A stretch of 64,000 nucleotides of DNA from Iphione sp. A-MEVVRFRX5 (Eukaryota), in the NCBI GenBank assembly GCA_976226885.1, contig OZ320315.1, positions 81,282,001 through 81,346,000 of the forward strand, written 5' to 3'. Within the stretch, counting starts at the first letter, position 1, and every line of letters begins with the position of its first letter. Below are positions 10,156 through 40,850 of the stretch, piece by piece. The translations under genes were made by a program, and so were the position numbers. The notes under the pieces were generated by a model. That model was not told the DNA's origin. It saw only the letters and a program-made list of their open reading frames with translations, and ran no database searches.

Positions 10156-13011
10156 GTTACATTTAGGGTGCCCAGTGGGTATTATATGACGCTATCTGTA
10201 TACGCGAATGATACAAAAGAAAAGGACTCAGGTGGTTCTTCCATGTGCTACTTTTTCATGGAAGCGAATATGATTTGGGTGTGTTTCTAACACAGATGTG
10301 TAAAAGAGGCAACAATGCATCTACGACCCTATATAGTCGATTCGACCAAAACGACTTGGTAAAATGGAAGCATGTGTTGCACTCATTGGTTGAAGAGCTG
10401 GACATAGTAGAGTTGATGAGTAAATATTTGTTTTCTGCTCAAGAGTTAAATTCATGTTATATACCCATCTCTTCCTGAACATTTAGTATTGCAGGATAAC
10501 ACATACAGGGGTAGCAGAGCTAGAAAAAAAAACCAAACCCACAAGCATGTAGGACATTAAAGGTTTGAGACAACAAAATACGAGAAGAGACTTAATACAC
10601 GGGGCAAGTAGAGCCGATCATGGTAAACACATCAAAAACAAGCGAGTGGACATGTGTCGATTTACTACAGTCATGCATAAATATGAAAAAAAAATACTGA
10701 GAATGGACGATAAGTAAAAGTTAAAGAGCAGACCTAGAAACGAGAGAATGGACTTTTGTACTCAATTTTTCACATGAGTGAGCAGAATTTAAAAGAAAAA
10801 ACAACAACATATAATTATGGCAATGAGCGGACTTCCAATGATAACATCTGCACATGGCAAACAAGGTCACCATGCTATATATTCTTCATGCATATAGGAA
10901 AGTCCATCACGGACACCGGGCCGGGACACTTGTCTGAACCACGCAACCTGGAGCAACCTTGGGAGAACGTCATGTGCATGGAAAGACCACCTCCATCTGG
11001 AACCATACGGTCTGCAGTGCTGCAGCAGGGTGGCTACGTCTTTTATTTGGTCACGACAGCAGCTCGACACTGTGGGCTGGACCTATAACCGGATAACGAA
11101 GGGTTAGATATTATTCGGCACGAAGCCCGTCCGCCTTTATTGTGGTTCCGGACTCGGTTGCTCTTCCATAAACTTCGCGCTCTAGGGATGTGGTTCATGG
11201 ATCAAGCTAGACTTGAATTACAGACTAGACCCATAACTAGACCCATAAACGTTTTATCTGGTAAAGCAGACAGCATATATAACCGACGGCTTTGCCGCTT
11301 TCCAATTGTGTGTCCAGACAATATTTGTCAGTAGATCACCACACCAAGAAGTAGTGATCTGGAATGGGTGGTGGTCCACCATTTAACGTTAAATGACATT
11401 GTTTCTGTGGTAAATACAGCGTATGTGTGTTGGATGTTTATTTGTCATTTGTGTATACCGAAAATAGCTTAATTCCGTTGGCACACAGCCCGTCGATAAA
11501 CGTTGCTCGCTAATAACCCGCCACCAAAACATCCCAAAATAACCATACAAAGAACACTGGACAAATATACATTGCCTTTGGGGGGGGGGGCTTCCGGCTA
11601 ATGTCAGACGAGGACATACATGTAGTTGATACGTGTGTATCATTTCTTCTACCTTAGAACTCATACATGTACATATGGACCGGCGAAGTATCCAACTTCG
11701 CTGTATGTACTTTCAGGTTTATTCATACGCTATTCTCCTTTTCCGAAACTTGAAGTTTCTCTCTTTTGTGCACGACTAACGTCCTCTCAGTGGTAGCTAC
11801 ATGCATTCTTTTCGTTCGAGACGTGTGGCAAGGCTTGCTGACCGGAACAATATGAGCATCTGTTATTAAATTTTCCCCTTCAGTATAGCCCTGGAGAAGC
11901 GGGCAAACATGACCTTAATGGAATCCAGATGTCCGCGACCGGTAGAGATGATGTACGTAGGTGAGGCCGAATTCTCGAACGGAAGCTCCTGCCGTACATA
12001 CAGGAGCGTGTCAGAGTGAAACATGTCGGCCTGGTTTTAAATAACAGCACAAAAAACGCGGTCCATGTCACACAACGCGCACTGTGCCGCGAGAGAGGAC
12101 CGAGACAAAAAGCGCTGAAAGGGACCAGTACTCCCTGACCCCTTTCCACTGGAGACAAGAGCGCATGGTCGCCGGGGCGACATGTATCTCTGCCATGTCA
12201 ATACTTAAACAAGATCCCCATCGTCGTGTTCAGTGGGGGCAAGATATCCCCGGTCGCTTGACCTTTGTAACCCCATCAGCTTGACCTTGGTCTGACCTAA
12301 CGGCCTGACCTTGGCATGTTGGTGATAGCGGTGGTCGGTGTAGGTGGTGATAGTTAGGGTCATTACCATCGGGAAGGCTTGTTATTCTTTTTTTATCAGA
12401 ATTTTTTTCCATGTTGGATATCAGGCCAGCTCCTGAAAATCGGTTGATTGCAGCGAGACCCTCAAGAGTAAAGGCAAATAGTGCGTTTTAAATACACTCG
12501 AGAGACCACGAACAAAGACACCTCTGGGATGAGCAGACAAGAAAGTATTTTTTGGACTGAAGGCTTTCAGTGCTCAGTTGTAAATTATTTAAGTATTGTT
12601 CTCACACGGTATTGTGTAGTTTTCAGCGGCTTGATGATTCGTCTCTCGTAAACATTGTCTCAGTTGGGATAGTGAAGGTACCTTTATGCCAGTGAAGCTT
12701 ACTGGAGGTTTGAGAAAGGCATGTAGCACCGTCTGGTGTAGAGGCTGGAAAACAGTGAAGCGTTCAGGAATGTCAGGTGCATGAACTTCTCTACGTGTAC
12801 ATTTAGACTCATGTTTTCTTTACAAGATTTCCGATCAGTTTTGCAAGTAGCAGTCGTAATGTTGGATAAAATTATGTCATTATGAAACTTAAAGCGAATC
12901 ATGTTGTCAACGGTGATTATATTGGAGTCAGCTTTAAAGTTGATCATTGAAAAGATGGCGTCTACGTGTGTATTGGTGGTGTCCTCATGGTGACCCCTGT
13001 GTGTTTTACAG

Positions 13012-15522
13012 GTGACGGAGCTCGGCAAGGACACGCTGCCCCACTGGCTCTACTATGACGCCGCCTCCCGCACGCTGCGCGGTCTGCCCTCCCAGGAGGA
13101 GGCCGGCTCCACGGTATACCTCCAGGTGCAGGCGCTGGGCGAGTTCAACAACGAGACGCAGTCGCATGCCAAGGACACCTTCTCCGTGTCCATCGTGGAG
13201 GACAGCTCCCACGCAAGCACGTCGGCCACGCCGCTGAAGGAGGCCTTCACGGAAGGCATGCGGCCCATCCGCTGTCCGGAAGGCTCGTCCGTCACCATGG
13301 TGACCATCATCGTCGACGCCGACCTGACGGCCAGCCGCGCGGAGGAGAAGGTGGGCCTGCTGCACGGGCTCTGCTCCCACCTGGGCATCCCGGCCGAGCT
13401 GCCGCGCCTCATGCCCGTGGGCAACCGGCCCATGTTTGACAGCTCGGCGCTGGTGGCCGGGCCCGGCGACGTCAAGCGGCCGCAGCACCCGGGCGCCGTG
13501 GTCCAGTGGGAGGTGGGTTGTGGGAACGTCAACGCCAACCACATGCCCGTGCTGCAGACGGTGGAGGCGACGGCGCACGACGGCTCGATGAGCGGCGCTG
13601 TGGGACACGGCATCATCGGCTGGCACGTGACCAACAACAAGATCCACGCGCCGCACCGCATGAAGCGGCAGGCGGCCATCCAGCCCACGGCCACCCTCCA
13701 GCCGTCGGTGGGGCCACCCACCCACCAGCCGGTACCCACCATAGTCATCGACGAGTCGGACCACCCGCCCACGCGGGTGGTGCCCAGTATGGCGTCCCCG
13801 ACCTTCCCCGGGGAGATCCAGCCGACGCGCACCAAGCACAAACACCACCACCGCACCAAGACCCGCGGCCGCCACCACCACCACGGGACCAAGCGGCCCA
13901 AACACTCGCCCACCAAGAAGCACCACCACCACAAGACTAAGTACCCCAAGACCCCCATGCCCACGCCCACCGTCATGCCCATCGTGCCCACGCGGGTGAT
14001 TGACGTGACGCCCACCGTCCTGGACACGTCGATGGAGCGGCCGCAGCCGACAGTGGGAGTGCTCAGTCCTGTCATGACCAGCACTGTCACCTTCCTCGAG
14101 CCCTCCATCACGCCCGGCCTGCCGCCTGTACGCACCACCGGCGCCACCGAGGTGCTGCCCACGCGCACCTACATCGTGCCCGAGGTGTCGGTCGAGCCGC
14201 CCGTCCGCCCCACCACCACCGACAGCGCGGCCCCGACTGACAGACCCAGCATGTCGGGCAAGACTACCGCCAAACCGACGACGACCGCCTCAGTCGAGCC
14301 CACCGACGAGCCCTTCAACTACGCGCCGATACTGAAGAACGACATCGACCGCATCTCGGTGACGGTGGGCGATGTGCTGGAGTACAAGGTGCCCAAGGAC
14401 ACCTTCTACGACTTCGAAGATGGCGGCACCGAGAACCTCAAGTTGGTCTTCCTCACGGTTGACGGGCTGACGCTGCCGCGCAACTCGTGGGTGCGCTTCA
14501 ACACCTCGAAGCAGACGCTCTACGGCCTGGCGCTGCCCAGCCACGTCGGCCGCCAGGAGTACCTTATGGCCGCCATTGACAGCCGCGGCAAGATCGCGCG
14601 CGACGCCTTCGAGATCGTGGTGCATCGTCGGCCCAACGAGCAGCGCATTAACCACGAATTCAGCCTGACGCTCGACCTCGAATACCGGAAGTTCCTCATC
14701 AACGTCGACAACCGCATAGACGTAGCCAAGAAGGTGGCGTCCATTTACGGCGACCCGGACGCGTCGAAGATCACGGTGACGAAAATTGCCGAGGGGTCGG
14801 TGGTGTACGCATGGACCAACAACAGCCTGCCCACTGACACGTGTCCCGTGCGCAAGATCGCCGACCTGCTGCAGTACCTGATCACGCACAACAACACGCT
14901 CAACCAGAGCATGGTGGCCGCCATGCTGCCCTACCGCGTTCTCAAGGCGGGCGCCCAGCCGCGCGGCGCCTGCAGCCCGCGGCTCATGCCGCCGGTAGAC
15001 TCCAGCCACGCGCCGCCCGTCAACCCCGGCCGCGTCGAGACGGCGCCGCGTGGGACCACCGACGAAGACGTCCTCATCACCACCCTGGTGCCGGCCATCG
15101 TCATCGCTGCCATGTTGCTGCTGGCCGGCCTCATCGCCTGCTTCCTCTACCGGAAGAAGCGCAAGGGCAAGCTGACGGCCGCCGACCAGCACACCTTCGT
15201 CAACAAGGGCATCCCCATCATCTTCGCCGACGAGCTGGAGGAGAAGCCCGACCCGCCAAGCAAGCCGCTAATACTCGACGATGAGAAGCCCCCGCTGCCG
15301 CCCCCCGGCTACCGACAGGCGTCGCTCGGCTCCGTACCGTCGACGCCCAACTCGGACCACAAGGAGCTGATCGAGACCACCGAGGACGAGCGCGACGACG
15401 CTGACATGGCGTCGCCACCTTACCAACCGCCGCCCCCGTTCACCGGCCCGCGTGACCACCGACAGCCGCGGCCCCGCAACCAACACGCTTACCGCAGCCC
15501 GCCGCCCTACGTGCCGCCCTAA
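13012..15522 (+). CDS. DAG1: Dystroglycan coding exon 2 (rest of alpha-DG and all of beta-DG); spliced protein 963 aa
   Basis: Acceptor gtgttttacag. Motifs: LPHWLYYD, furin site RMKR|Q, Thr/Pro mucin region, second cadherin-like domain, SEA cleavage EG|SVVYAWTNNSL, TM helix followed by RKKRKGK, C-terminal SPPPYVPP (PPxY WW-binding motif). Confidence 0.97.
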   Translation: MTELGKDTLPHWLYYDAASRTLRGLPSQEEAGSTVYLQVQALGEFNNETQSHAKDTFSVSIVEDSSHASTSATPLKEAFTEGMRPIRCPEGSSVTMVTIIVDADLTASRAEEKVGLLHGLCSHLGIPAELPRLMPVGNRPMFDSSALVAGPGDVKRPQHPGAVVQWEVGCGNVNANHMPVLQTVEATAHDGSMSGAVGHGIIGWHVTNNKIHAPHRMKRQAAIQPTATLQPSVGPPTHQPVPTIVIDESDHPPTRVVPSMASPTFPGEIQPTRTKHKHHHRTKTRGRHHHHGTKRPKHSPTKKHHHHKTKYPKTPMPTPTVMPIVPTRVIDVTPTVLDTSMERPQPTVGVLSPVMTSTVTFLEPSITPGLPPVRTTGATEVLPTRTYIVPEVSVEPPVRPTTTDSAAPTDRPSMSGKTTAKPTTTASVEPTDEPFNYAPILKNDIDRISVTVGDVLEYKVPKDTFYDFEDGGTENLKLVFLTVDGLTLPRNSWVRFNTSKQTLYGLALPSHVGRQEYLMAAIDSRGKIARDAFEIVVHRRPNEQRINHEFSLTLDLEYRKFLINVDNRIDVAKKVASIYGDPDASKITVTKIAEGSVVYAWTNNSLPTDTCPVRKIADLLQYLITHNNTLNQSMVAAMLPYRVLKAGAQPRGACSPRLMPPVDSSHAPPVNPGRVETAPRGTTDEDVLITTLVPAIVIAAMLLLAGLIACFLYRKKRKGKLTAADQHTFVNKGIPIIFADELEEKPDPPSKPLILDDEKPPLPPPGYRQASLGSVPSTPNSDHKELIETTEDERDDADMASPPYQPPPPFTGPRDHRQPRPRNQHAYRSPPPYVPP

Positions 15523-23893: not shown

Positions 23894-24898
23894 GTACCTG
23901 GCCGTAGACTCATCCCACCTCGTAATGATGAACTTCAATCCACACTTCTGAGTTGAGCTGGAAATAACATTGATATGTTACTCGTCTTTTGGCGGTAAAA
24001 TGCACTCATGCTCTCAGATAGAGCCACAACATTCACATGCATATATCCATTATCTATCGAATATCAGTCTGAAAAATGCCCTGAAGTTTTGGGCCTTTCC
24101 TCTATCTCTAGATAAGAAGAAACCACTGTGCACCAGGTTTGTCCGGTAGGGTACATGTTCTATCATCTGCTTGAAACTGGCAGTTTATTTTTTCCTCCAT
24201 CAGATGAAGATGCTCAGCTTGGAAAAGGTGCATTGTCAACTCTGTTATTTACATAGGAAATTCTTTTCTAAATATTCCCTTTTCAATAATCAATATACAT
24301 CACATGCGACTAACTTGGCCCGAGTTAAAATCTCTGGTTTTCTCTGTCTGTAAATGTAATGGTCAACGATGTATTTATCACCATTTACGTGTGGTACATG
24401 GGCATCATGCGTGTTAGCTAAGTGAAAATTAGGCTTCACATGGTTATATCTTTATAAAATGTAATACTTCAATTCACCCCAGACATGAACTGAATTCAGT
24501 AAATATTTTATTTCATTTGTAACCATAACTGGATACAGCTTCTCTTAGTTACCTCCGAATGTGTTCATCAGTTATAATCAATCTACCAAGATGGCGCTGA
24601 CGCATGAACACGCACTGTGAATGCGCTCTGTGGAAATTGTATCAGAAATGTCGGCTATGTACTGAATACAAGCCTGAAAAGCTCTAACATGGCAGGATAG
24701 CAACCGTAATGGATACTGAACTGAAATTGCTGTACAAAAACTATCCTGTACGAGCGGATTACACCATTTCACCACTACAAAACTGACCTACCGCGACACC
24801 CAGCCTAATGACCGTTAAGGTTTAAACTGGTCATTGCATAGGACGCTACCGAGACACTAGCTACAACTTCTGAGCGCTGCTGATAATATATAACCACA

Positions 24899-26281
24899 AT
24901 GTCTGCAAGTGAAAAGGTACGAAATCACAGGGACTTAACAATTACTCCGGAACATGACAGAAAGAGATCAACATCGAGAAAACGACCGAGGGGACCAGGA
25001 TCTGACGGAGAAGATACTACGAGACCCAACTCAGGTGAACCAACGATAGGAGCCCTTATGGAGGAATTAAAGAAAAGCACTGCCGAACAAAGGGAGCTTT
25101 CCATGGACATCAAATCCGAAATCGAAGGTATGAGTACTTTACTTAAAACAACAGTACAAACCGTCAGTGAACACACAACTAAAATTGAAAAACTTGAAGC
25201 TGAGGTGAATCAACTACGAGACGAAAATAAAAAGCTAAAGGCCGAATTTATAGCCAAGGCAGCTTACAAAACTGGTAACCCAGAGATCGAAAAGATAAAC
25301 AGTGAAAATATGTCGATGAACAAGAACTACCGTCGCTATAACATTTTCATTGATGGACTTGATGAAATCCCTGGTGAGAACGCTATTGCCATAAGCATAG
25401 GCCTATTTGCAACAATGGGAGTAACATTGGCTGAAACAGACATAGACATAGCGTATCGCACGTCACGAAAAAACAAGGACGGCAAACGGGGAATGTTCTT
25501 GCGCTTCACCCGGTTATCAGCCAAAGAGAAAGTAATGGCTGCCAAAAAGAACCTGAAGGGGAAGAACATTTGGATAAACCCAGATGAAAGCAAGGACGAA
25601 AGAAGAATACGCCAAAACCTACAAGCTGTAGCTAAGCAGGTAAAGCATAAAGCACCCACAAAGGTAGTCAAGCTACGCGAACAGAAAATAGAAATAGACA
25701 ATAAATGGTATACACACGATAATTTGCACAAGGTTCCTTCAGAATATGGACTTGCTGCAGCTAGGCAACGTACTACAGACCAACATGTTATCATATCTGG
25801 CGAAGGGGCCCCATTCTCAAACCTGACTAAATGCAAATTTCGGTGGTGTGAAACTGACTTCTCATCTAGCGAACAGGCCCTATGTTGGGCTAAAGCCGCC
25901 AAAAAGGGTGACGACCTCAAAGCCGCGTCTATCGAGCAGATCCACGACCCAACAGCCCTTGTGACAACTAGGAAAAAAATGACTGGTAGCAAAACCTGGG
26001 ATAATGAGAAAAGAGCTGTATTGAAGGACATCCTATTTCACAAATACAGTCAAAACATTGAACTAAAGAACTTATTGATCTCAACCGGCAACAAAATAAT
26101 AGTTGAAGCGAGCAAGGACCTGTACTGGGGAACAGGCACTGACCCCCACTCAGAGGAAATCAGGAACGGTACCTACAAAGGTAAAAATATCCTCGGTAAG
26201 GTGCTTGAGGAAGTGAGGCGTGACCTTACTTCCACGACTGCTCCCACGAATGAAAACGAGTCTGACATGACAGTGGAGTAG
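24899..26281 (+). CDS. LINE ORF1: coiled coil + L1-type RRM/CTD fused to a C-terminal NADAR (YbiA-like) domain (about 25787-26227)
   Basis: ORF1 motifs RRYNIFIDGLDE, IDIAYR, MFLRF, IWINPD. NADAR motifs FSN, SEQ...AKA, KYSQN..LKNLLISTG, IVEAS.D.YWG.G, GKN.LG..L..VR..L. Confidence 0.88.
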   Translation: MSASEKVRNHRDLTITPEHDRKRSTSRKRPRGPGSDGEDTTRPNSGEPTIGALMEELKKSTAEQRELSMDIKSEIEGMSTLLKTTVQTVSEHTTKIEKLEAEVNQLRDENKKLKAEFIAKAAYKTGNPEIEKINSENMSMNKNYRRYNIFIDGLDEIPGENAIAISIGLFATMGVTLAETDIDIAYRTSRKNKDGKRGMFLRFTRLSAKEKVMAAKKNLKGKNIWINPDESKDERRIRQNLQAVAKQVKHKAPTKVVKLREQKIEIDNKWYTHDNLHKVPSEYGLAAARQRTTDQHVIISGEGAPFSNLTKCKFRWCETDFSSSEQALCWAKAAKKGDDLKAASIEQIHDPTALVTTRKKMTGSKTWDNEKRAVLKDILFHKYSQNIELKNLLISTGNKIIVEASKDLYWGTGTDPHSEEIRNGTYKGKNILGKVLEEVRRDLTSTTAPTNENESDMTVE

Positions 26282-26330
26282 AAGAATAGCTACACTAGGT
26301 AACGCAGCGTTCAAACACCACACCGACACC

Positions 26331-27023
26331 ATGATACGCCGGCCTGTCACTATAGCATGCAGTAGTCACGGGAGAGGACTCCAACACCTTTTTGCTGACG
26401 ATCGCTTCAATATACGTGTGCAATTCTATCCTGGAGGAGAGATACTTGGGATAGCACGTCGTGCATGTCGAGATCATCGGGGGATCGACCCATGGGCACT
26501 TATCCTATGGGCCGGCGGGAACAACATTACTCAGCTTCATCGCATGGGACCTGCCGAGAATCAACGACGTTATATTACCCTCCGATATCCGACTGTAGAA
26601 GAAGCAGTAGACACTATCATATCTGAGTACATCCAAGCCATTCAAATACTGCGGAGCCGTTTCCCGGGCTGCTATGTGTTCCTGTCAACAATTTTCGGAT
26701 CGGATTACGCAACCTCCAACCATAGAATGAACGGTTACATGAATCGTGGTGGGCGCGCTATACGACTTCAGGCAATGCTCAACGAGACGGTGGTCCGTCT
26801 GAATCGTTTTATTGTACACCACAACATGTCGAATGGATTCCCAGTGCCCTGGACTATGTCTGTCCTTCACAGTCGCAACAATGGACGTTGGAGACACCGG
26901 CTGGTCCGTTTACGGGACGGCTGCCACCTGCGTCGACAATGGCACCCCACGGTCGCTAGACACCTAGAAGCTGCCCTGATACTCCTATGGTCGTCCGAAC
27001 AAAATTGGGGTGAACTTCACTGA
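26331..27023 (+). CDS. LINE middle ORF: SGNH/GDSL esterase-like protein (230 aa)
   Basis: Four SGNH blocks in order: ACSSHG (Ser), YPGG (Gly), WAGGNN (Asn), RDGCH (Asp-x-x-His). Confidence 0.8.
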   Translation: MIRRPVTIACSSHGRGLQHLFADDRFNIRVQFYPGGEILGIARRACRDHRGIDPWALILWAGGNNITQLHRMGPAENQRRYITLRYPTVEEAVDTIISEYIQAIQILRSRFPGCYVFLSTIFGSDYATSNHRMNGYMNRGGRAIRLQAMLNETVVRLNRFIVHHNMSNGFPVPWTMSVLHSRNNGRWRHRLVRLRDGCHLRRQWHPTVARHLEAALILLWSSEQNWGELH

Positions 27024-27422
27024 AACCCGAAGCTAAGTACTCTATACTACCTAAACCTTGACTGTTTATTTCCCTCTTTTGACTTTGTTGACACTATTCT
27101 ACTGTAACTAATGTCGAACGGGTTGATAACCCCGCCGACTGTGAACAATCACTAGTACCATACCAGCAAGAACAGGTCGGTGACCTATGTATACCATAAA
27201 TCGCATTAAAGTTACCAACCCGATACCTCCTCGTTTATCAACATGATTTTACTGATAAGCCGCATTTTTGATGCAATTTCTGACAGACAGTGCTGTCTAT
27301 CTTAATGATTTATTCACAAAACATCACCTGTTTCACCCTCATTAATCGCATCGTCTCAAACATCTCCCCGATTTCACTTCATCCGAACTGTGCCAAACCT
27401 ACCTGCATACTAATGGATATCA

Positions 27423-30218
27423 ATGATTAGTATTTCATGCCTTAATATTCGCAGCCTATTAAAAAACTGGGAAGAATTTGAAATAACGGTACAAAGTAGA
27501 TGCGCCGATGTATTCCTACTATCTGAAACCTGGCTACAAGAAAATATAAGATCTGCCTTGATAACCATCCCTAATTATCACTTATATCGTAATGATCGTA
27601 AACACAAAAGAGGGGGGGGTGTACTAGCTTATATATCGAATAAATATGAATCTGTACTGGATCTGTGTGCAGATAGTGTACGAAGCACGGAAAACATTGA
27701 ATGCCTATGGTTACACTATCACACCAAGTGCCGCTCAATCTATATCTGCAACTTATACAGACCCCCCAAAGGTGATATCAAATTGTTTTTTACAAACCTC
27801 CAGACTGATATTGACGCCAAGCGTGGCCACGGAAACAAAGATATCATAATCAGTGGTGACTTCAATATCGACTGGAACAACTCGACTAGTATAGCTTGTC
27901 AATCACTTAGATTCTTCTGTCTTGAGAATGGGTTGAAACAACACATTATGGAAAATACTAGAGTTACAGCCACTAGTGCCACAACCATCGACCTGCTACT
28001 TAGTTCACTTGATCGAAGTGAAATCAAAACTAACACGATAGATGTGATGTATAGTGATCACAAAATGATTGAAGCGGTACTATTGAATACGCCTATGCAA
28101 TCGCATAAAACTTATTATTACCGACCATACAGCAAACTCAGTCAGGAAGAGTTCCTTGAACTGACGAATAAACTAAACTGGAACGAAATAGTAAGATGGA
28201 ACGACCTTGACTTATCTTGGTATGTAATTGAACAGTTCATCAAAGAAATAATAGATGACAAATGTCCACTTAAATCCTCAACGAGTAGGCAAAAGGGACG
28301 GCCGTGGGTTAAGCAAGAACACTACGATCAAATCAGAGAACGAAACAGACTCAGCAAGATTTATATTAAAGAAAACACTCCTGAAAATAGATTGGCACTT
28401 AGATTGGCTACGCGTAAGGTGAGAAAATCATTGGTTAGCTCTAGATCAAAGTACATTCAGACAGAAATTGATAATTCGAAAGATAACCCACAGCAATACT
28501 GGAACAAGATGAAAACACAGCTAGGCCTTCTCGACAACAGAGAAAATATAATCATGTCCGCTAAAAATGGTAGCCGCTTGTCTGACCTGGAGATAGCTAG
28601 TTGTATTAACGTATACTTTGTAAGTATCGGAGATACATTGTCTACCGAAATGTCGCAACCGTATGTCCACTCAGAAAAAAACATACCTTGTAATCTTGAG
28701 GTAGAGCCTATCAGTATGGAAGAACTACAACGTGCGATTAGCAGCATAAGTGCCTCTAAGAACAGTGGTATCTATGGACTATCTGGCCTATATATACAAA
28801 ACTTGATGAAACATCGAAAAGAATTCTTCCTCGACTTCTTCAACGCTTCACTAAACATGAGCGTAGTCCCCCTGGGTTTCAAAAAATCCAAAGTTACCCC
28901 TCTTCATAAAAAAGGTGATAAAAATCTACCAGCAAATTACAGACCTATAAGCATACTAAACTTTCCTAATAAGGTACTTGAACGGATTATCCACACGAGA
29001 CTCTATCGGTACTTGGAAAATGAAAATCTATTGACTGAACATCAGTTCGGATTCCGTCGTTCAAAAGGTACTGAAATAGCCATCTCCACGCTGACGGATC
29101 AAATCCACTCCGACCTGAACAATAACAAGAGAGTACAATGTGCATTTGTTGACTTTGCAAAGGCATTCGACAGTGTCGACCATAGTATCCTGCTGAGAAA
29201 ACTGAAAGACTACAATATCGGCATGTACGAAGCCTGGCTAAGAAACTACCTAACGGGCAGAATGCAAAGCACACTAGTAAACGGTACTGAATCTGAAGAA
29301 AAACCCGTCAAATGCGGAGTGCCACAGGGGTCTATTCTTGGACCGTTGCTCTTCCTAATATTCGTCAACGATCTACCTGAAAGTCTTACCACCTGTAAAA
29401 GCCTGCTTTACGCGGACGACCTGGTCTTAATATCAACAGGAAACACACACGAGATATGCATGGCTCAACTACAAACTGGTCTAACTGAACTAGAGAATTG
29501 GGCCAACAACAACCGAATCAAAGTCAATATATCCAAAACAAAATGCATGGAATTCACTTATCGACCAGGGGCTAGAATCCTAGACCTTCAATACAAGAAT
29601 GAACCACTAGAACAAGTTAAATACTTCAACTACCTAGGAGTAGAACTAGATGCTCAGTTGAACTTCTCTAAACATCTTACATCATTGACAAGTAGGGGAT
29701 ATTTCAAACTGAAGCATTACAGAAAAATACGCAAATACCTTAATAAGGAAACGGCTGTGAAATTAGTAAAGACCATGTTGCTTCCCATCACTGAATATGG
29801 ACTCGTCTTTACCTCCAATGCTAAACAAACAATACTCAACAAACATATCACTATGAGGAAAAGAATACATGAAATGTCTACAGGAATGGTCATAAGCAGG
29901 GATGATGTTGAATCTGAATTACGAGGCATCACCGACTGTACAATTCTGCGTATAGGATACACCGTCCTAACCAAAGAAGAAGTACCTGATAACAACCCCC
30001 TGGTCCGGCAAACTCGAGGTGCCCTAAAACGTCCAATCCAAGAGATCCCTAGGATAACGAAAGACGGATATAGAAGATCGATAAGATATAGATTTTCCAA
30101 TGCTTGGAGGAATATACTCAGTATCGCTGAAACCAACCTTCCCCCGCAGAAATTTAGAAAAATGCTACAAAAGAAAAGGCGACAAACGGTAATTAAAGCC
30201 CATTTTTATGTCCCTTAG
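27423..30218 (+). CDS. LINE ORF2: apurinic endonuclease + reverse transcriptase (931 aa)
   Basis: APE motifs CLNIRSL, LSETWL, YRPP, GDFN, IDL, SDH. RT motifs NYRPIS, QFGFR, DFAKAFD, GVPQGSILGP, YADD, YLG. Confidence 0.97.
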   Translation: MISISCLNIRSLLKNWEEFEITVQSRCADVFLLSETWLQENIRSALITIPNYHLYRNDRKHKRGGGVLAYISNKYESVLDLCADSVRSTENIECLWLHYHTKCRSIYICNLYRPPKGDIKLFFTNLQTDIDAKRGHGNKDIIISGDFNIDWNNSTSIACQSLRFFCLENGLKQHIMENTRVTATSATTIDLLLSSLDRSEIKTNTIDVMYSDHKMIEAVLLNTPMQSHKTYYYRPYSKLSQEEFLELTNKLNWNEIVRWNDLDLSWYVIEQFIKEIIDDKCPLKSSTSRQKGRPWVKQEHYDQIRERNRLSKIYIKENTPENRLALRLATRKVRKSLVSSRSKYIQTEIDNSKDNPQQYWNKMKTQLGLLDNRENIIMSAKNGSRLSDLEIASCINVYFVSIGDTLSTEMSQPYVHSEKNIPCNLEVEPISMEELQRAISSISASKNSGIYGLSGLYIQNLMKHRKEFFLDFFNASLNMSVVPLGFKKSKVTPLHKKGDKNLPANYRPISILNFPNKVLERIIHTRLYRYLENENLLTEHQFGFRRSKGTEIAISTLTDQIHSDLNNNKRVQCAFVDFAKAFDSVDHSILLRKLKDYNIGMYEAWLRNYLTGRMQSTLVNGTESEEKPVKCGVPQGSILGPLLFLIFVNDLPESLTTCKSLLYADDLVLISTGNTHEICMAQLQTGLTELENWANNNRIKVNISKTKCMEFTYRPGARILDLQYKNEPLEQVKYFNYLGVELDAQLNFSKHLTSLTSRGYFKLKHYRKIRKYLNKETAVKLVKTMLLPITEYGLVFTSNAKQTILNKHITMRKRIHEMSTGMVISRDDVESELRGITDCTILRIGYTVLTKEEVPDNNPLVRQTRGALKRPIQEIPRITKDGYRRSIRYRFSNAWRNILSIAETNLPPQKFRKMLQKKRRQTVIKAHFYVP

Positions 30219-36336: not shown

Positions 36337-36382
36337 TATATGTCAATGAATAACAGACAAGAGGATGGGGAATAGATACGCC
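36337..36382 (-). repeat. Ngaro repeat B2 (B1 copy at 36523-36568)
   Basis: tatatgtca(a/c)tgaataacagacaagaggatggggaatagatacgcc present twice. Confidence 0.93.
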
Positions 36383-36400
36383 TTTATTAAGAGGAAATAA

Positions 36401-36527
36401 AAATTTTGAATACAGTGTATCGTTATGGAACATGACAGCCTATGACGTATCTGCAAGTAACCTGGATACACAACAATGGCATTGCCTCATGAACATATAT
36501 TAATATAATATCTTATATGGCATATAT
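36401..36527 (-). repeat. Ngaro repeat A2 (A1 copy at 40338-40464)
   Basis: 127 bp direct repeat differing only at gcctc(a/g)tgaa. Confidence 0.95.
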
Positions 36528-36577
36528 GTCACTGAATAACAGACAAGAGGATGGGGAATAGATACGCCCAAACCCAA

Positions 36578-37540
36578 TCAAAACTTAGAGGAAAGCCTTT
36601 CCTCAGAACATATTAAATCATCAAAATTAACATCAATATATCTCCTAACACAGTCTGATCTCCAATTCCCCCTCATTTTAATTAAGGAAATATCAACACC
36701 TTCAGCAGCTAACAACGTACAACCGCCTCTTCTGAATGAATGTGCAGAGATTCTACCATCAACATTAAATGACTTTGAAACACTCTTTAATTTGCACATA
36801 AAATCATAGTAATTCAGAAAAACAAAACTACCTCTCTGCAACATTGAAAACACCCTCTGATTATCCTTCCGATACATTTTACTATACCATAGCTTCAACC
36901 ATGTAACTGCACAAAGTTTGAAATTTTTACAATAGTATAAGGGTATAGAGTAAAAATCAGTGCTAGACTTTACATTTTTTCCATGCCTCACTTTTATCAC
37001 AGCACCAAAATCACAGAATTCAACATCACTCCACAAAATACCATGCTCAGATGTAAAAGACTCTTTTCTAAATAGACATCGATAGGCTAAAATACATGCT
37101 AGCCAAAACATTAAATCGAAATCTAAGGATACATCAATTTTTTCAAATATACGCAACATATCACAAGTTTTTAAGGCATAAGCTCTGACCGGGGCTCTGT
37201 CGCGTGTTCTTTTCAGGCCTGCCATGACCTGACATATACCAAAATTGTGAATATCTGGTGGATCGTGGCCAGCTAGTTTACACCAAAATACCAAACCTGA
37301 CAAATAATTCCTAATAGAACTATAACAAAGAGTCCTACCCAAAAATCCCAGAAATAAACATGTTTGGTAGTTGCTACATGGAAAAGGTGATAATCCATAT
37401 TCCCTACAAAAGTCCTCATATTTTTTCTTCTGCAGGTTCCTACACTTCCAAGTGTTTGCTGATATGGACTTCTCCTTCAGTGATTCCACTTCAACCTTCA
37501 ATTTCCGCAGCTTCTCTGAAAAGAGAAAATAGTACACCAC
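36578..37540 (-). CDS. Tyrosine recombinase of the Ngaro element (no 5' ATG; probably expressed by splicing)
   Basis: N-terminal SAM-like region (YSSIRNYLSG) and catalytic motifs LFRKES (R), HSFRRGG (HxxR), GNW.SD...RY (W, Y). Confidence 0.93.
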   Translation of the reverse strand: MVYYFLFSEKLRKLKVEVESLKEKSISANTWKCRNLQKKKYEDFCREYGLSPFPCSNYQTCLFLGFLGRTLCYSSIRNYLSGLVFWCKLAGHDPPDIHNFGICQVMAGLKRTRDRAPVRAYALKTCDMLRIFEKIDVSLDFDLMFWLACILAYRCLFRKESFTSEHGILWSDVEFCDFGAVIKVRHGKNVKSSTDFYSIPLYYCKNFKLCAVTWLKLWYSKMYRKDNQRVFSMLQRGSFVFLNYYDFMCKLKSVSKSFNVDGRISAHSFRRGGCTLLAAEGVDISLIKMRGNWRSDCVRRYIDVNFDDLICSEERLSSKF

Positions 37541-39464
37541 TGCAACATGCTTTTTCTATCCATGGCTCACATTTCAGTCTTCTAATTGCCTTAACATCAC
37601 ACATTCTTGACAGTACATCTGCAATTATATTGTCACCTGTACAAATATATTCAACTCTGAAATGAATATTAGCAAAAACACAGGTCCAGAATATTTCTCT
37701 TAGCCAACGCATGCAGCATTTATTACTACTGCGACCTGTTCTGAGCATGTACAACACAGGTAGATTGTCTACTCTCAACAGGATCATCCTATTCCTAAGT
37801 CTACCTGACCACCTCTTCAGGGCGACAACTACAGCCCATAGCTCATACACATTAATGTGGTCATCATAATCATCAAAGCTAGGTAAAGATTCAACATGGT
37901 GTTCTAGTCCATCGAAATATACAAAATCCTTAGACCAGCTACCATAGAACCAATCCCTATCAAACCAACCCCCAAAGCCATCCAAGGAAGAGTCTGTTGT
38001 CACGATACCTTCCACCTCTTTGGTTTTGATAATTCTTTTCTTCCCATTGAAGAATTCAATGAAATGAGACCACCATTTGAGATCATGTATCACATCTTGG
38101 TTCAAGACATACAATTTGTTCGGACGCTTACATTCCTTGATGAATTCATATAGGCTCCTTGAATACGTCCTCCCCCCTTTGACAACAGTGGAGCAATGGG
38201 ATAAAGATCCTGCCAAACTCTCTATCTCTTTTTTCTTCAAGCTTCCCCTATCCAACGCTAACTTTATTTTTTCTCTCACTTCAACGAGTTTGACCTCTGG
38301 CAGGCGAAGTTCCATTTTACATGAGTCAACCAGAATACCTAGGAATTTACATTCCGTCATAGCTTTACAACATTTCTCCTCACTAACAGTGAAACCTATC
38401 TGTTCAATCACAGTTTTTAAGGTTTTCTGGTAAGTATCGCACTCATCATAGGTAGAACCGATGACTATGAAATCATCAAGATAATTAATTATCCTTCCAT
38501 CACAACGATACCTGAACTCATGCACAATATATTCAGATAGCTTGTTGAAGATACATGGGGCACACTTCAAACCGAAGCAGAGAGCATTATTAACATAATA
38601 TCTCTTTACATTATCCTCGTTTGTCCAACTGAAACCTTGAAACTCCCTATGTTTAGGGTTAACCATTACTGACCGATAGGCACTTTTGATGTCACAAGTA
38701 CTCATCCAGTCTCCTTCATTCAATACTTCACATACATCATCCAAGGATTTGTAACTAAAATCCTCGTGAGTAGACGCCATGAAATCATTAATACACCTAT
38801 TAACTGGCATCGAGCAGTCAGTTATCGGGCGGAGTTTGCCATTACTTTTATGAACACCACCTAGGGCATTGACACAACGAGGTTTTTCCTCACATAAAGA
38901 GATGTGACCCTCCTCCAGCTCACTTTTCACCTTTTCATCCATCTGAATTTTGAACTCCTCAGACAGGATAGATTTGTAATTTTCACATTCATAGCTGGTC
39001 TCACAATTCTGGTCAACAATATCAAAACCATTACTGATACCTTTCCATAGGTCAGAAATCACATCATCAGGTAGGCTTGAACGGCATAAATACACGAAGT
39101 TCCTACAGGCTTTCAACGGATTGATACATCCCTCGATAAGATGATTACAATTACATGTACCCCTAACACATTCTTTAAAAATAGGGATTTTCTTTTCTTT
39201 GTTGAAGTCATACACTGAAAACTGAGCGTTACTAGTTGATTGATCAACATCCGTAACAAAAACCTTCAGAGCATCGTTAACAACAACAACGTCATCCACA
39301 ACTACTTTACGATCGCAGTCATCTAAAAAACTTGACTGATCTCTCTCAACTTGAGATGTCACCTGAGTGTCTCCATCACTACTAGGTAAATAGCAATCAT
39401 TAGATACAGTCAACTCACATTCTGAAGTTGTCAGTACTTGGTTTTTGTCCTCTGTAGCGGATAG
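37491..39464 (-). CDS. Ngaro pol: reverse transcriptase + RNase H; frame is open from the gag stop, first ATG only at 38942
   Basis: DIKSAY, CFGL..AP, YLDDF, FLG, TDSS..G.G, INVYEL, DN, ADVLSR. Confidence 0.95.
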   Translation of the reverse strand, partial: LSATEDKNQVLTTSECELTVSNDCYLPSSDGDTQVTSQVERDQSSFLDDCDRKVVVDDVVVVNDALKVFVTDVDQSTSNAQFSVYDFNKEKKIPIFKECVRGTCNCNHLIEGCINPLKACRNFVYLCRSSLPDDVISDLWKGISNGFDIVDQNCETSYECENYKSILSEEFKIQMDEKVKSELEEGHISLCEEKPRCVNALGGVHKSNGKLRPITDCSMPVNRCINDFMASTHEDFSYKSLDDVCEVLNEGDWMSTCDIKSAYRSVMVNPKHREFQGFSWTNEDNVKRYYVNNALCFGLKCAPCIFNKLSEYIVHEFRYRCDGRIINYLDDFIVIGSTYDECDTYQKTLKTVIEQIGFTVSEEKCCKAMTECKFLGILVDSCKMELRLPEVKLVEVREKIKLALDRGSLKKKEIESLAGSLSHCSTVVKGGRTYSRSLYEFIKECKRPNKLYVLNQDVIHDLKWWSHFIEFFNGKKRIIKTKEVEGIVTTDSSLDGFGGWFDRDWFYGSWSKDFVYFDGLEHHVESLPSFDDYDDHINVYELWAVVVALKRWSGRLRNRMILLRVDNLPVLYMLRTGRSSNKCCMRWLREIFWTCVFANIHFRVEYICTGDNIIADVLSRMCDVKAIRRLKCEPWIEKACCSGVLFSLFREAAEIEG

Positions 39465-40370
39465 TCAGTCCCTTTTTGACGTGACCTTCGTCTTACCGCT
39501 GTCTCCACCTGTCGTTTTGTTACTGAAGCAGTCCATTGATTTATGCCCCATCTTCTGGCATACTTGGCATGCGTGGCGAAAACGACAACTAGGATCATCA
39601 CAGAGGCCATTATTTAACTTATAACAAACACCAATGGCCTTCTTTGACCTCTTCTTACTCTCTTTCTGTCTAGCAACGTCTACTGTAGCATCCAGGCTAA
39701 GAAACCGATGGACGTTTACAGTATCACCAAAGCAGAAGATCTTGATTCCCTCTCGTCTCACCTTCCTCCTCATTTCCCGGTCGTAGGAAATGAGAGACTC
39801 CCCCGTGTAGATCTTTGTGGATGCTCTATCCGCCAAAAAGGATATATGATCGATATATCCATCCACGTCATCACCGTTGGAGATCATCTTTTTCAATAGG
39901 CCCAAGGACCCCACCATCAGGTCCTCGAATGTAGTTGTATGACCACCTTTAACATACGAGGAAATCGAATATTTCTTCAAATTACCTCTCTTCGCCTTTT
40001 TAGATTTCTTCTTTCTGTCATCTCTCTCGTCATCTGAAGAACTTCTGAAGTCACTCTCTTCCGAGCTCAATGAGCTATCCACATCAGCACTTGAAGACTT
40101 CTTCTCTGCCTTATTCGAGCCACTCACCATCATCGCCTCCAGCATCGACTCTATTTTCTCGAACCTCTTTTCAACGATTTCCTTAGAAAAATCGACTTGA
40201 GAAGTGTCGTCAACCTTCTCAGGAATAGAGAATGACATTCTGCAATTTTTTCCCACTGGGGGAGTGTGTTTACTTCCACACTTTTTGCAATATTTCTCCA
40301 TAGTCACTTCAGTAGGAGAAACACGTCTGCACAGCGCAAATTTTGAATACAGTGTATCGTTATGGAACAT
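39465..40370 (-). CDS. Ngaro gag-like ORF (likely start ATG 40301)
   Basis: N-terminal CxxCxxxH...C motif, HISFLAD...YDREMR core, C-terminal CCCH + CCHC fingers (CYKLNNGLC...C..RH.CQVC...GH...C). Confidence 0.85.
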   Translation of the reverse strand: MFHNDTLYSKFALCRRVSPTEVTMEKYCKKCGSKHTPPVGKNCRMSFSIPEKVDDTSQVDFSKEIVEKRFEKIESMLEAMMVSGSNKAEKKSSSADVDSSLSSEESDFRSSSDDERDDRKKKSKKAKRGNLKKYSISSYVKGGHTTTFEDLMVGSLGLLKKMISNGDDVDGYIDHISFLADRASTKIYTGESLISYDREMRRKVRREGIKIFCFGDTVNVHRFLSLDATVDVARQKESKKRSKKAIGVCYKLNNGLCDDPSCRFRHACQVCQKMGHKSMDCFSNKTTGGDSGKTKVTSKRD

Positions 40371-40850
40371 GACAGCCTATGACGTATCTGCAAGTAACCT
40401 GGATACACAACAATGGCATTGCCTCGTGAACATATATTAATATAATATCTTATATGGCATATATATTACATAAAGCATATCTATAATGAAGCTTGAGAAT
40501 ATTACACGTTTTCTTTCCTCAGGAATATTTTAGTATCTCTATAGGAAAAATAACCCCGTCTTAATTACTCACTTTCCATGCGGTTTCTCAGCTGTGCGCC
40601 AGCGCTCGGAGTGGGGCTGAGGAGTTTGCCGGGATTCCACGGGGTTTCTTACTTAGGTACCTAGACGTCACAGCAGGGAGTTTCTCATCTGTGTTCTGTG
40701 TTCGGATTACACGGCCCAGGGAGACCTAGTTATACATAATACTACCTACTACTACAGCCCACGGCGTGGGGGACTGACGGAAGCTTGGAGGCAGAGTCAC
40801 ATTGCCATCTCTTGCTAGAGCTTTAATTATTTCCTGGTGAAAGCTTCACA

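Follow-up and report, generated by a model that had tools for sequence, protein, structure and literature searches.

Within a 64,000-nucleotide (nt) stretch of DNA from Iphione sp. A-MEVVRFRX5 (GCA_976226885.1, OZ320315.1, 81,282,001-81,346,000), hereafter the window and the frame of all coordinates, we found an intact-looking Ngaro-type tyrosine-recombinase retrotransposon whose gag-like and pol open reading frames (ORFs) share one frame and are separated by a single stop codon. Gag-Pol of this element is likely made by stop-codon readthrough at that UGA (39467), judging from the junction itself and from the layout of related elements. The same gag-stop-pol arrangement recurs among these relatives and appears, with good support from the comparison of loci, to be a trait of the clade and not a lesion. 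The mechanism is familiar from elsewhere and the setting would be new; conservation of the layout is well supported, and the translation is what we infer from it. The junction comprises the following features:

39465..40301, minus strand: gag-like ORF, 278 amino acids (aa) from the ATG at 40301 and ending in TGA, with an N-terminal CxxCxxxH and a C-terminal Cys/His knuckle
39459..39467, minus strand: gag stop with its 3' context, TGA CTA TCC, the candidate readthrough site; an in-frame stop is kept in 11 of 20 related loci
39171..39464, minus strand: linker of 98 codons, acidic and rich in Val, Asp and Ser, open in the pol frame and lacking ATG, assessed by codon-phase score
37491..39464, minus strand: pol ORF, 657 codons stop to stop, with a Cys-rich region ahead of the reverse transcriptase (RT), the RT itself (RVT_1, E=1.8e-22) and RNase H

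On the minus strand the junction reads AAA AGG GAC TGA CTA TCC GCT. A first-pass annotation of this DNA had described a single TGA between gag and pol in the same frame, with pol open from 39464 to 37491, and direct reading bore this out: apart from the TGA at 39467-39465, no stop interrupts the 936 codons that lead from the gag ATG (40301) up to the pol stop (37493-37491). An earlier in-frame gag ATG lies at 40370, within the repeat at the 5' end of the element. The annotation had also placed the first pol ATG past the motifs GISNGFDI and NYKS, which is equally correct. This ATG is codon 175, at 38942, and in an alignment of 67 sequences (the window pol ORF with 66 of the best 120 of 203 relatives) G146 of GISNGFDI, N162 and Y163 of NYKS, and C120 were invariant, with C99, C104 and C106 close to it, all of them upstream. 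Because these positions precede M175, initiation there would lose conserved residues. The RT_RNaseH match in the pol ORF (E=0.008) fell short of its cut-off, and the gag ORF had no Pfam match, its role being assigned from its position and its Cys/His knuckle, the region of which can be aligned with a fused protein, P0172.

Related DNA loci allowed the junction to be followed through the clade. A metagenome scan yielded 71 loci, with the knuckle pattern found in 38; of the 33 in which it was not found, four (L004, L010, L011 and L022) were read by eye and included and the rest were excluded from the junction count, as were L053 and L054 (decayed and from another clade) and L069 (a different element). 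The accompanying tree was a quick search in which the fork joining the in-frame groups (support 87) was drawn open; L025 and L037 were placed with the window groups by similarity, outside this tree. Of the 20 readable junctions in the groups nearest the window, ten hold a single in-frame stop and run open into RT (L001, L002, L004, L005, L008, L011, L013, L014, L028 and L032), and an eleventh, L021, is in frame as far as the first conserved motif. With the window included there are eight in-frame lineages, in which the distance from stop to RT ranges from 102 to 297 codons. The first-pass annotation had allowed that its reading would fall if the frame relation were not conserved; the frame is kept across these lineages, which are 28-80% identical in RT, and 6-nt insertions or deletions preserve it in the pairs L011/L014 and L005/L021. 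In every in-frame lineage the gag stop lies 16-26 residues past the knuckle.

The stop contexts in these relatives were TGA-CTG (L032, the nearest to the window), TGA-CCT, TGA-CCA, TGA-CTT, TGA-ACG, TAG-GAT, TAG-GGA and TAG-GAA. Of the in-frame TGA-CTA whose conservation the first-pass annotation had proposed to test, the frame and a C at position +4 are common among the relatives but CUA is not kept. TGA-C or TAG-G, corresponding to readthrough types II and III (PMC3159437), ends gag in 7 of 8 in-frame lineages and in 2 of the 14 others (Fisher p=0.0015), whereas TAA is seen in none of the 8 and in 6 of the 14 (p=0.05); both tests overstate independence because the lineages share ancestry, making the p values optimistic. 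Two candidate junctions, the TGA-CTG of L009 and the TGA first picked in L017, were rejected as they sit in rearranged gag.

The 98-codon linker that precedes the first conserved Cys is open and coding-like. It contains no stop in the pol frame as against 6 and 16 in the other two frames, the probability of 80 open codons being approximately 0.002 from base composition, and its pol-frame coding score was reached by 3 of 2000 shuffles in the window and by 1 of 2000 in L032. The first Cys motif is present in 90 relatives; upstream of it, 50 or more codons are open in 81 of them and 80 or more in 61, in a stretch that is not conserved in sequence. A conserved 17-codon linker, which the first-pass annotation had suggested looking for, was not seen among the relatives, in which linker length and sequence vary.

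At the protein level, the best 120 of the 203 pol relatives were 467-827 aa long and 40-46% identical at best, and none was a fused Gag-Pol. A gag knuckle and a detectable RT motif occurred together in only 2 of 221 database relatives, P0172 and P0192. Both carry Trp-Leu at 10 and 16 residues past the knuckle, the place of the stop in the DNA loci, and this Trp is the only one in the next 120 residues (chance ~0.01-0.04 each). The dipeptide fits a TGA-CTN that was called, or had mutated, as Trp. No gag homologue was found among 665 candidates, a search of longer proteins gave 2 matches among 3447 candidates, neither a fused relative of the window clade, and the viral contigs and prokaryote genomes searched contained no relatives.

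Other observations made among these sequences concern the organisation of their ORFs. P0122 (1114 aa) places ~400 aa of gag-like sequence ahead of RT and a methyltransferase domain, and represents a DIRS-type element whose gag-pol ORF is apparently single. In the excluded locus L069 (1209-3518), a different retroelement, an ORF whose match to a viral fusion glycoprotein is weak and below the cut-off shares its frame with a protease-RT ORF beyond its terminal TGA, and may be an env-like gene ahead of pol across one stop. Short Pro/Phe motifs lie at the end of Gag in the TAG-G group (L008, 1120-1170; L009; L013, 1690-1734) and in one pol linker (P0077); these appear to resemble PAM2, the poly(A)-binding-protein motif.

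The third ORF of the element, encoding the tyrosine recombinase (YR), pointed to a spliced RNA. The features that bear on its expression are:

36578..37555, minus strand: tyrosine recombinase ORF, 325 codons stop to stop, overlapping the end of pol by 65 nt (Phage_integrase, E=1.3e-7)
37516..37530, minus strand: strong phase-1 acceptor, a pyrimidine tract and CAG, where the recombinase ORF begins (score 8.6, the highest of 315 AG sites)
39984..39985, minus strand: candidate phase-1 donor within gag with the sequence GAG|GTAATT (ranked fifth of 310 GT sites, score 4.4), the presumed partner of the recombinase acceptor
39495..39496, minus strand: another candidate phase-1 donor, 10 codons upstream of the gag stop (score 4.0, ranked sixth of 310)

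The first ATG of the recombinase ORF comes only at codon 111, and joining the donor at 39985 to the acceptor at 37516 gives an open frame of 417 aa. In 17 of 21 YR ORFs, one of the two best-scoring candidates was a phase-1 AG located 241-273 codons ahead of the catalytic His; L005, L020, L033 and L049 were the exceptions, and in several loci of the spacer clade, in which a spacer separates gag from pol, this acceptor is weak (0.7-3.0). A phase-1 donor near gag codon 105-125 was the top donor in L001, L005, L008, L013 and L014. The recombinase is thus probably made from a spliced RNA and fused to the Gag N-terminus. Just upstream of the 5' repeat and outside the element, an acceptor-like site (7.5, second-best) and a donor-like site lie at 40539 and 40572 on the minus strand.

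In the spacer clade (support 98; L026, L031, L033, L035, L036, L039, L040, L045, L047, L055 and L056), pol itself is apparently made by splicing, as judged from the position of its acceptors. Between 86 and 514 nt separate the gag stop from the best acceptor, with pol-frame stops in this interval in 10 of 11 lineages, and in all 11 the best AG is in phase 1, 102-112 codons before the RT motif, and scores 4.1-9.3. The opening of L045 in frame was counted as chance because L045 belongs to this clade and has its acceptor, and because its sister L046 has a stop there. The window has no acceptor comparable to that of the spacer clade.

Taken together, these features suggest how the element might be expressed. 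Unspliced RNA would be translated from the gag AUG, with most ribosomes halting at the UGA at 39467 and releasing Gag. A small fraction would decode the leaky UGA-C as an amino acid and proceed through the disordered acidic linker into RT and RNase H, yielding a Gag-Pol of ~936 aa that would set a high Gag:Pol ratio and tie RT to the particle. The signal would apparently consist of the stop and the next few bases only. The recombinase, which lacks a start of its own, would come from a spliced RNA joining the first ~105 gag codons to the acceptor at 37516. We infer the readthrough, its rate, the inserted residue and the splice from the frames, the conserved layout, the coding-like linker and the splice-like sites, which can be read directly.

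Several observations weigh against readthrough, some of them in favour of another route to pol. The reading comes from the layout of the sequence, in a family represented here by one copy. The frame is lost downstream of the stop in 5 of the 20 junctions (L003, L006, L007, L017 and L023), all of which carry other lesions; the triplet after the stop varies between CTA, CTG, CCT, CCA and CTT, and L011 and L014 have TGA-A; the short linkers of L001, L005 and L014 gave no coding score; and the evidence from P0172 and P0192 is at protein level. Nor did we detect RNA structure around the window stop: downstream folds gave z between -1.8 and +0.4 over four lengths, the best pseudoknot score was equalled by 11 of 15 shuffles, and the long-range duplex was matched by 112 of 200. 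Across the in-frame lineages nothing consistent was found 3' of the stop, with low shuffle counts for the long-range duplex in L028 (2/200) and L032 (7/200) alone. As the fold, pseudoknot and long-range scans were at shuffle level, a stimulatory stem-loop or pseudoknot was rejected, and the stem-loop that the first-pass annotation had thought worth seeking downstream of the stop was not found (153 nt, z=-1.10). In published work, UGA-CUA alone gives 1.5% readthrough in HEK-293T cells (PMC4132726), so that a leak from context only is plausible but would be low, and the gag-UGA-pol junction of the Candida albicans element Tca2 showed no readthrough in a yeast reporter (PMC2194720). The core of the Gag-Pol readthrough originally proposed is supported by the kept layout, the leaky stop types, the coding-like linker and the contrast with the spacer clade, whereas neither the CUA motif nor a stem-loop is conserved.

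Pol could instead be translated from a spliced RNA in which a gag donor (39985 or 39496) is joined to a linker acceptor (39452, 39323, 39215 or 39173), removing the stop. Splicing of the element is very likely, given that the recombinase acceptor ranks first, and since the same gag donor is phase-compatible with several weak AGs in the linker, this alternative retains some probability. The window offers both phase-1 donors and an acceptor of 3.8 at 39173 (with A at -3), a linker acceptor is present in all 11 spacer-clade lineages, a strong phase-1 one occurs in L005 and L021 (7.1 and 6.3), which alone among the in-frame lineages attain the range of the spacer clade, and the scores come from a crude generic model with untrained frequencies. 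Yet the other window acceptors score only 0.1 (39452), -1.1 (39323) and -0.2 (39215), and in 6 of the 8 in-frame lineages no phase-1 AG scores above -0.3. The site at 39173 lies one codon before C99, its use would drop conserved upstream motifs, at that place just 9 of 90 relatives have residues compatible with YAG, and compatibility stays at or below 43% in every column within 25 residues. Moreover, neither an open, in-frame, coding-like linker nor leaky stop types would be expected from splicing, and we consider it an unlikely source of pol in the window. Separate initiation, whether by re-initiation, at a near-cognate codon (CUG, UUG or GUG) close to the beginning of the linker, or on a short RNA from a cryptic promoter near the junction, has precedents in L032, with an ATG at codon 3 past the stop, in L020 and L022, where overlapping pol frames have their own Met, and in L010, where pol begins in another frame at the ATG of TAA TAA A ATG, a possible stop-restart within the in-frame clade. 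Linker codons 11 and 18 of the window are CTG and TTG, in frame, and the Tca2 junction holds a minor cryptic promoter, with pol still made from the gag-pol RNA (PMC2194720). Against this, in the window the first in-frame pol ATG is preceded, past the gag stop, by 17 ATGs out of frame, L008, L013 and L028 have no Met ahead of the conserved RT motif, and separate initiation needs neither the shared frame nor the avoidance of TAA; we regard it as distinctly improbable.

The TGA might also be a nonsense mutation of a normally fused gag-pol ORF in this copy, as three of the 20 junctions have a sense codon at the site (CAG in L009, CGG in L025 and L037) and the family is represented here by one copy. 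The near-constant distance of the stop from the knuckle in all in-frame lineages, the lack of fusions among the best pol relatives and their rarity in the database, and an element otherwise free of lesions, with repeats one base apart in each pair, make this explanation very hard to sustain. Readthrough at the UGA consequently remains the reading that we prefer.

We hold as evenly balanced the proposal that a broad animal Ngaro clade runs a retrovirus-like programme of three products from one promoter, namely Gag, a structure-free readthrough Gag-Pol (UGA-C or UAG-G) and a spliced fusion of the Gag N-terminus to the recombinase, with a related clade splicing pol to a second phase-1 acceptor, and that members of the order have moved among readthrough, splicing and separate initiation for the same task. 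If the conserved stop is indeed leaky, the DIRS order would join the short list of retroelements that use gag-pol readthrough, copies with such a stop would be intact and not broken, ATG-based annotations that cut off conserved pol sequence would need correcting, and reporter tests could draw on the stop contexts that the clade provides naturally. The fusion could bring targeting information from Gag to the integration enzyme and so explain how ORF1 comes to be linked with integration preference, as reported for the Ngaros of Cafeteria (PMC8547959). We found no description of readthrough in DIRS-order elements in the literature searched, within the text available: term searches for it were negative in PMC8547959, PMC9210276, PMC7192593, PMC6681497, PMC3783388, PMC4157794 and bioRxiv 10.1101/2021.04.08.439009, and the terms DIRS, Ngaro and retrotransposon are absent from the available text of a 2026 readthrough review (PMC13517186).

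The class of the element was assigned from its repeat anatomy and ORF order, the RT tree having contained no named reference Ngaro elements. The repeats and the associated signal are:

40338..40464, minus strand: split direct repeat A1, the 5' end of the element, identical to A2 at 126 of 127 nt
36523..36568, minus strand: repeat B1, identical to B2 at 45 of 46 nt
36401..36527, minus strand: repeat A2, abutting B1, with ATATA common to both
36383..36388, minus strand: AATAAA between A2 and B2, a candidate polyadenylation signal
36337..36382, minus strand: repeat B2, the 3' end of the element, with one mismatch to B1

The split direct repeats are in the order A1 ... B1 A2 B2, each pair (A1/A2 and B1/B2) with one mismatch and the element without further lesion, and the gag-like, RT/RNase H and tyrosine recombinase ORFs follow in this order on one strand. 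No methyltransferase, protease or DDE integrase family of Pfam was matched at E<=0.1 in the three ORFs, no SGNH ORF is present in the element, and the window contains no second copy. Elsewhere in the window, on the plus strand, we noted a large dystroglycan exon (12994-15519; DAG1, E=6e-69, and a_DG1_N2), which points to an animal as host, and a non-LTR (long terminal repeat) retrotransposon (24887-30215). The latter has an ORF1 that looked unusual for its NADAR domain (E=4e-26), an endonuclease-RT ORF and a short overlapping ORF whose GDSL-lipase match is weak and below the cut-off.

This anatomy, with split direct repeats, gag, RT/RNase H and YR and no methyltransferase, is that described for Ngaro elements (PMC9210276, PMC8547959, PMC4157794, PMC3783388), and the repeats, ORF order and lack of a methyltransferase are shared with Ngaro-like elements of the order DIRS such as Xenopus DIRS-53_XT and the Cafeteria burkhardae Ngaros. 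In the available text of the DIRS-order papers, ORFs are given as separate or overlapping, and how RT and YR are expressed is not addressed. The Xenopus Ngaro families have frames that all overlap and an extra SGNH ORF, whereas the window element has gag and pol in frame across one stop and no SGNH. Tca2, an LTR retrotransposon and hence of a different order, likewise has a single in-frame UGA between gag and pol. Among established readthrough signals, UGA-CUA or UGA-CGG defines type II and UAG-G type III, often with 3' structures (PMC3159437). The first-pass annotation had called UGA-CUA a classic leaky context, and the window indeed has this type II sequence in common with alphavirus nsP3/nsP4, the replicases of tobra- and furoviruses and cellular UGA-CUAG genes (PMC3159437, PMC4132726), but it reads UGA-CUAU, with U and not G at +7. 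It also lacks the extended 3' stem-loop that frequently, although not universally, begins ~8 nt past a type II stop, and its relatives keep only UGA-C. The gammaretrovirus murine leukaemia virus (MuLV), with gag-UAG-G-pol, follows the same logic of Gag and readthrough Gag-Pol with the last gene expressed from a spliced RNA, and L008, L013 and L028 have its TAG-G, their best pseudoknot score being equalled by 3-4 of 15 shuffles. In contrast to MuLV, the window element has UGA-C, no pseudoknot above shuffles and no protease, integrase or LTRs, and its spliced gene is the recombinase, apparently fused to the N-terminus of Gag.

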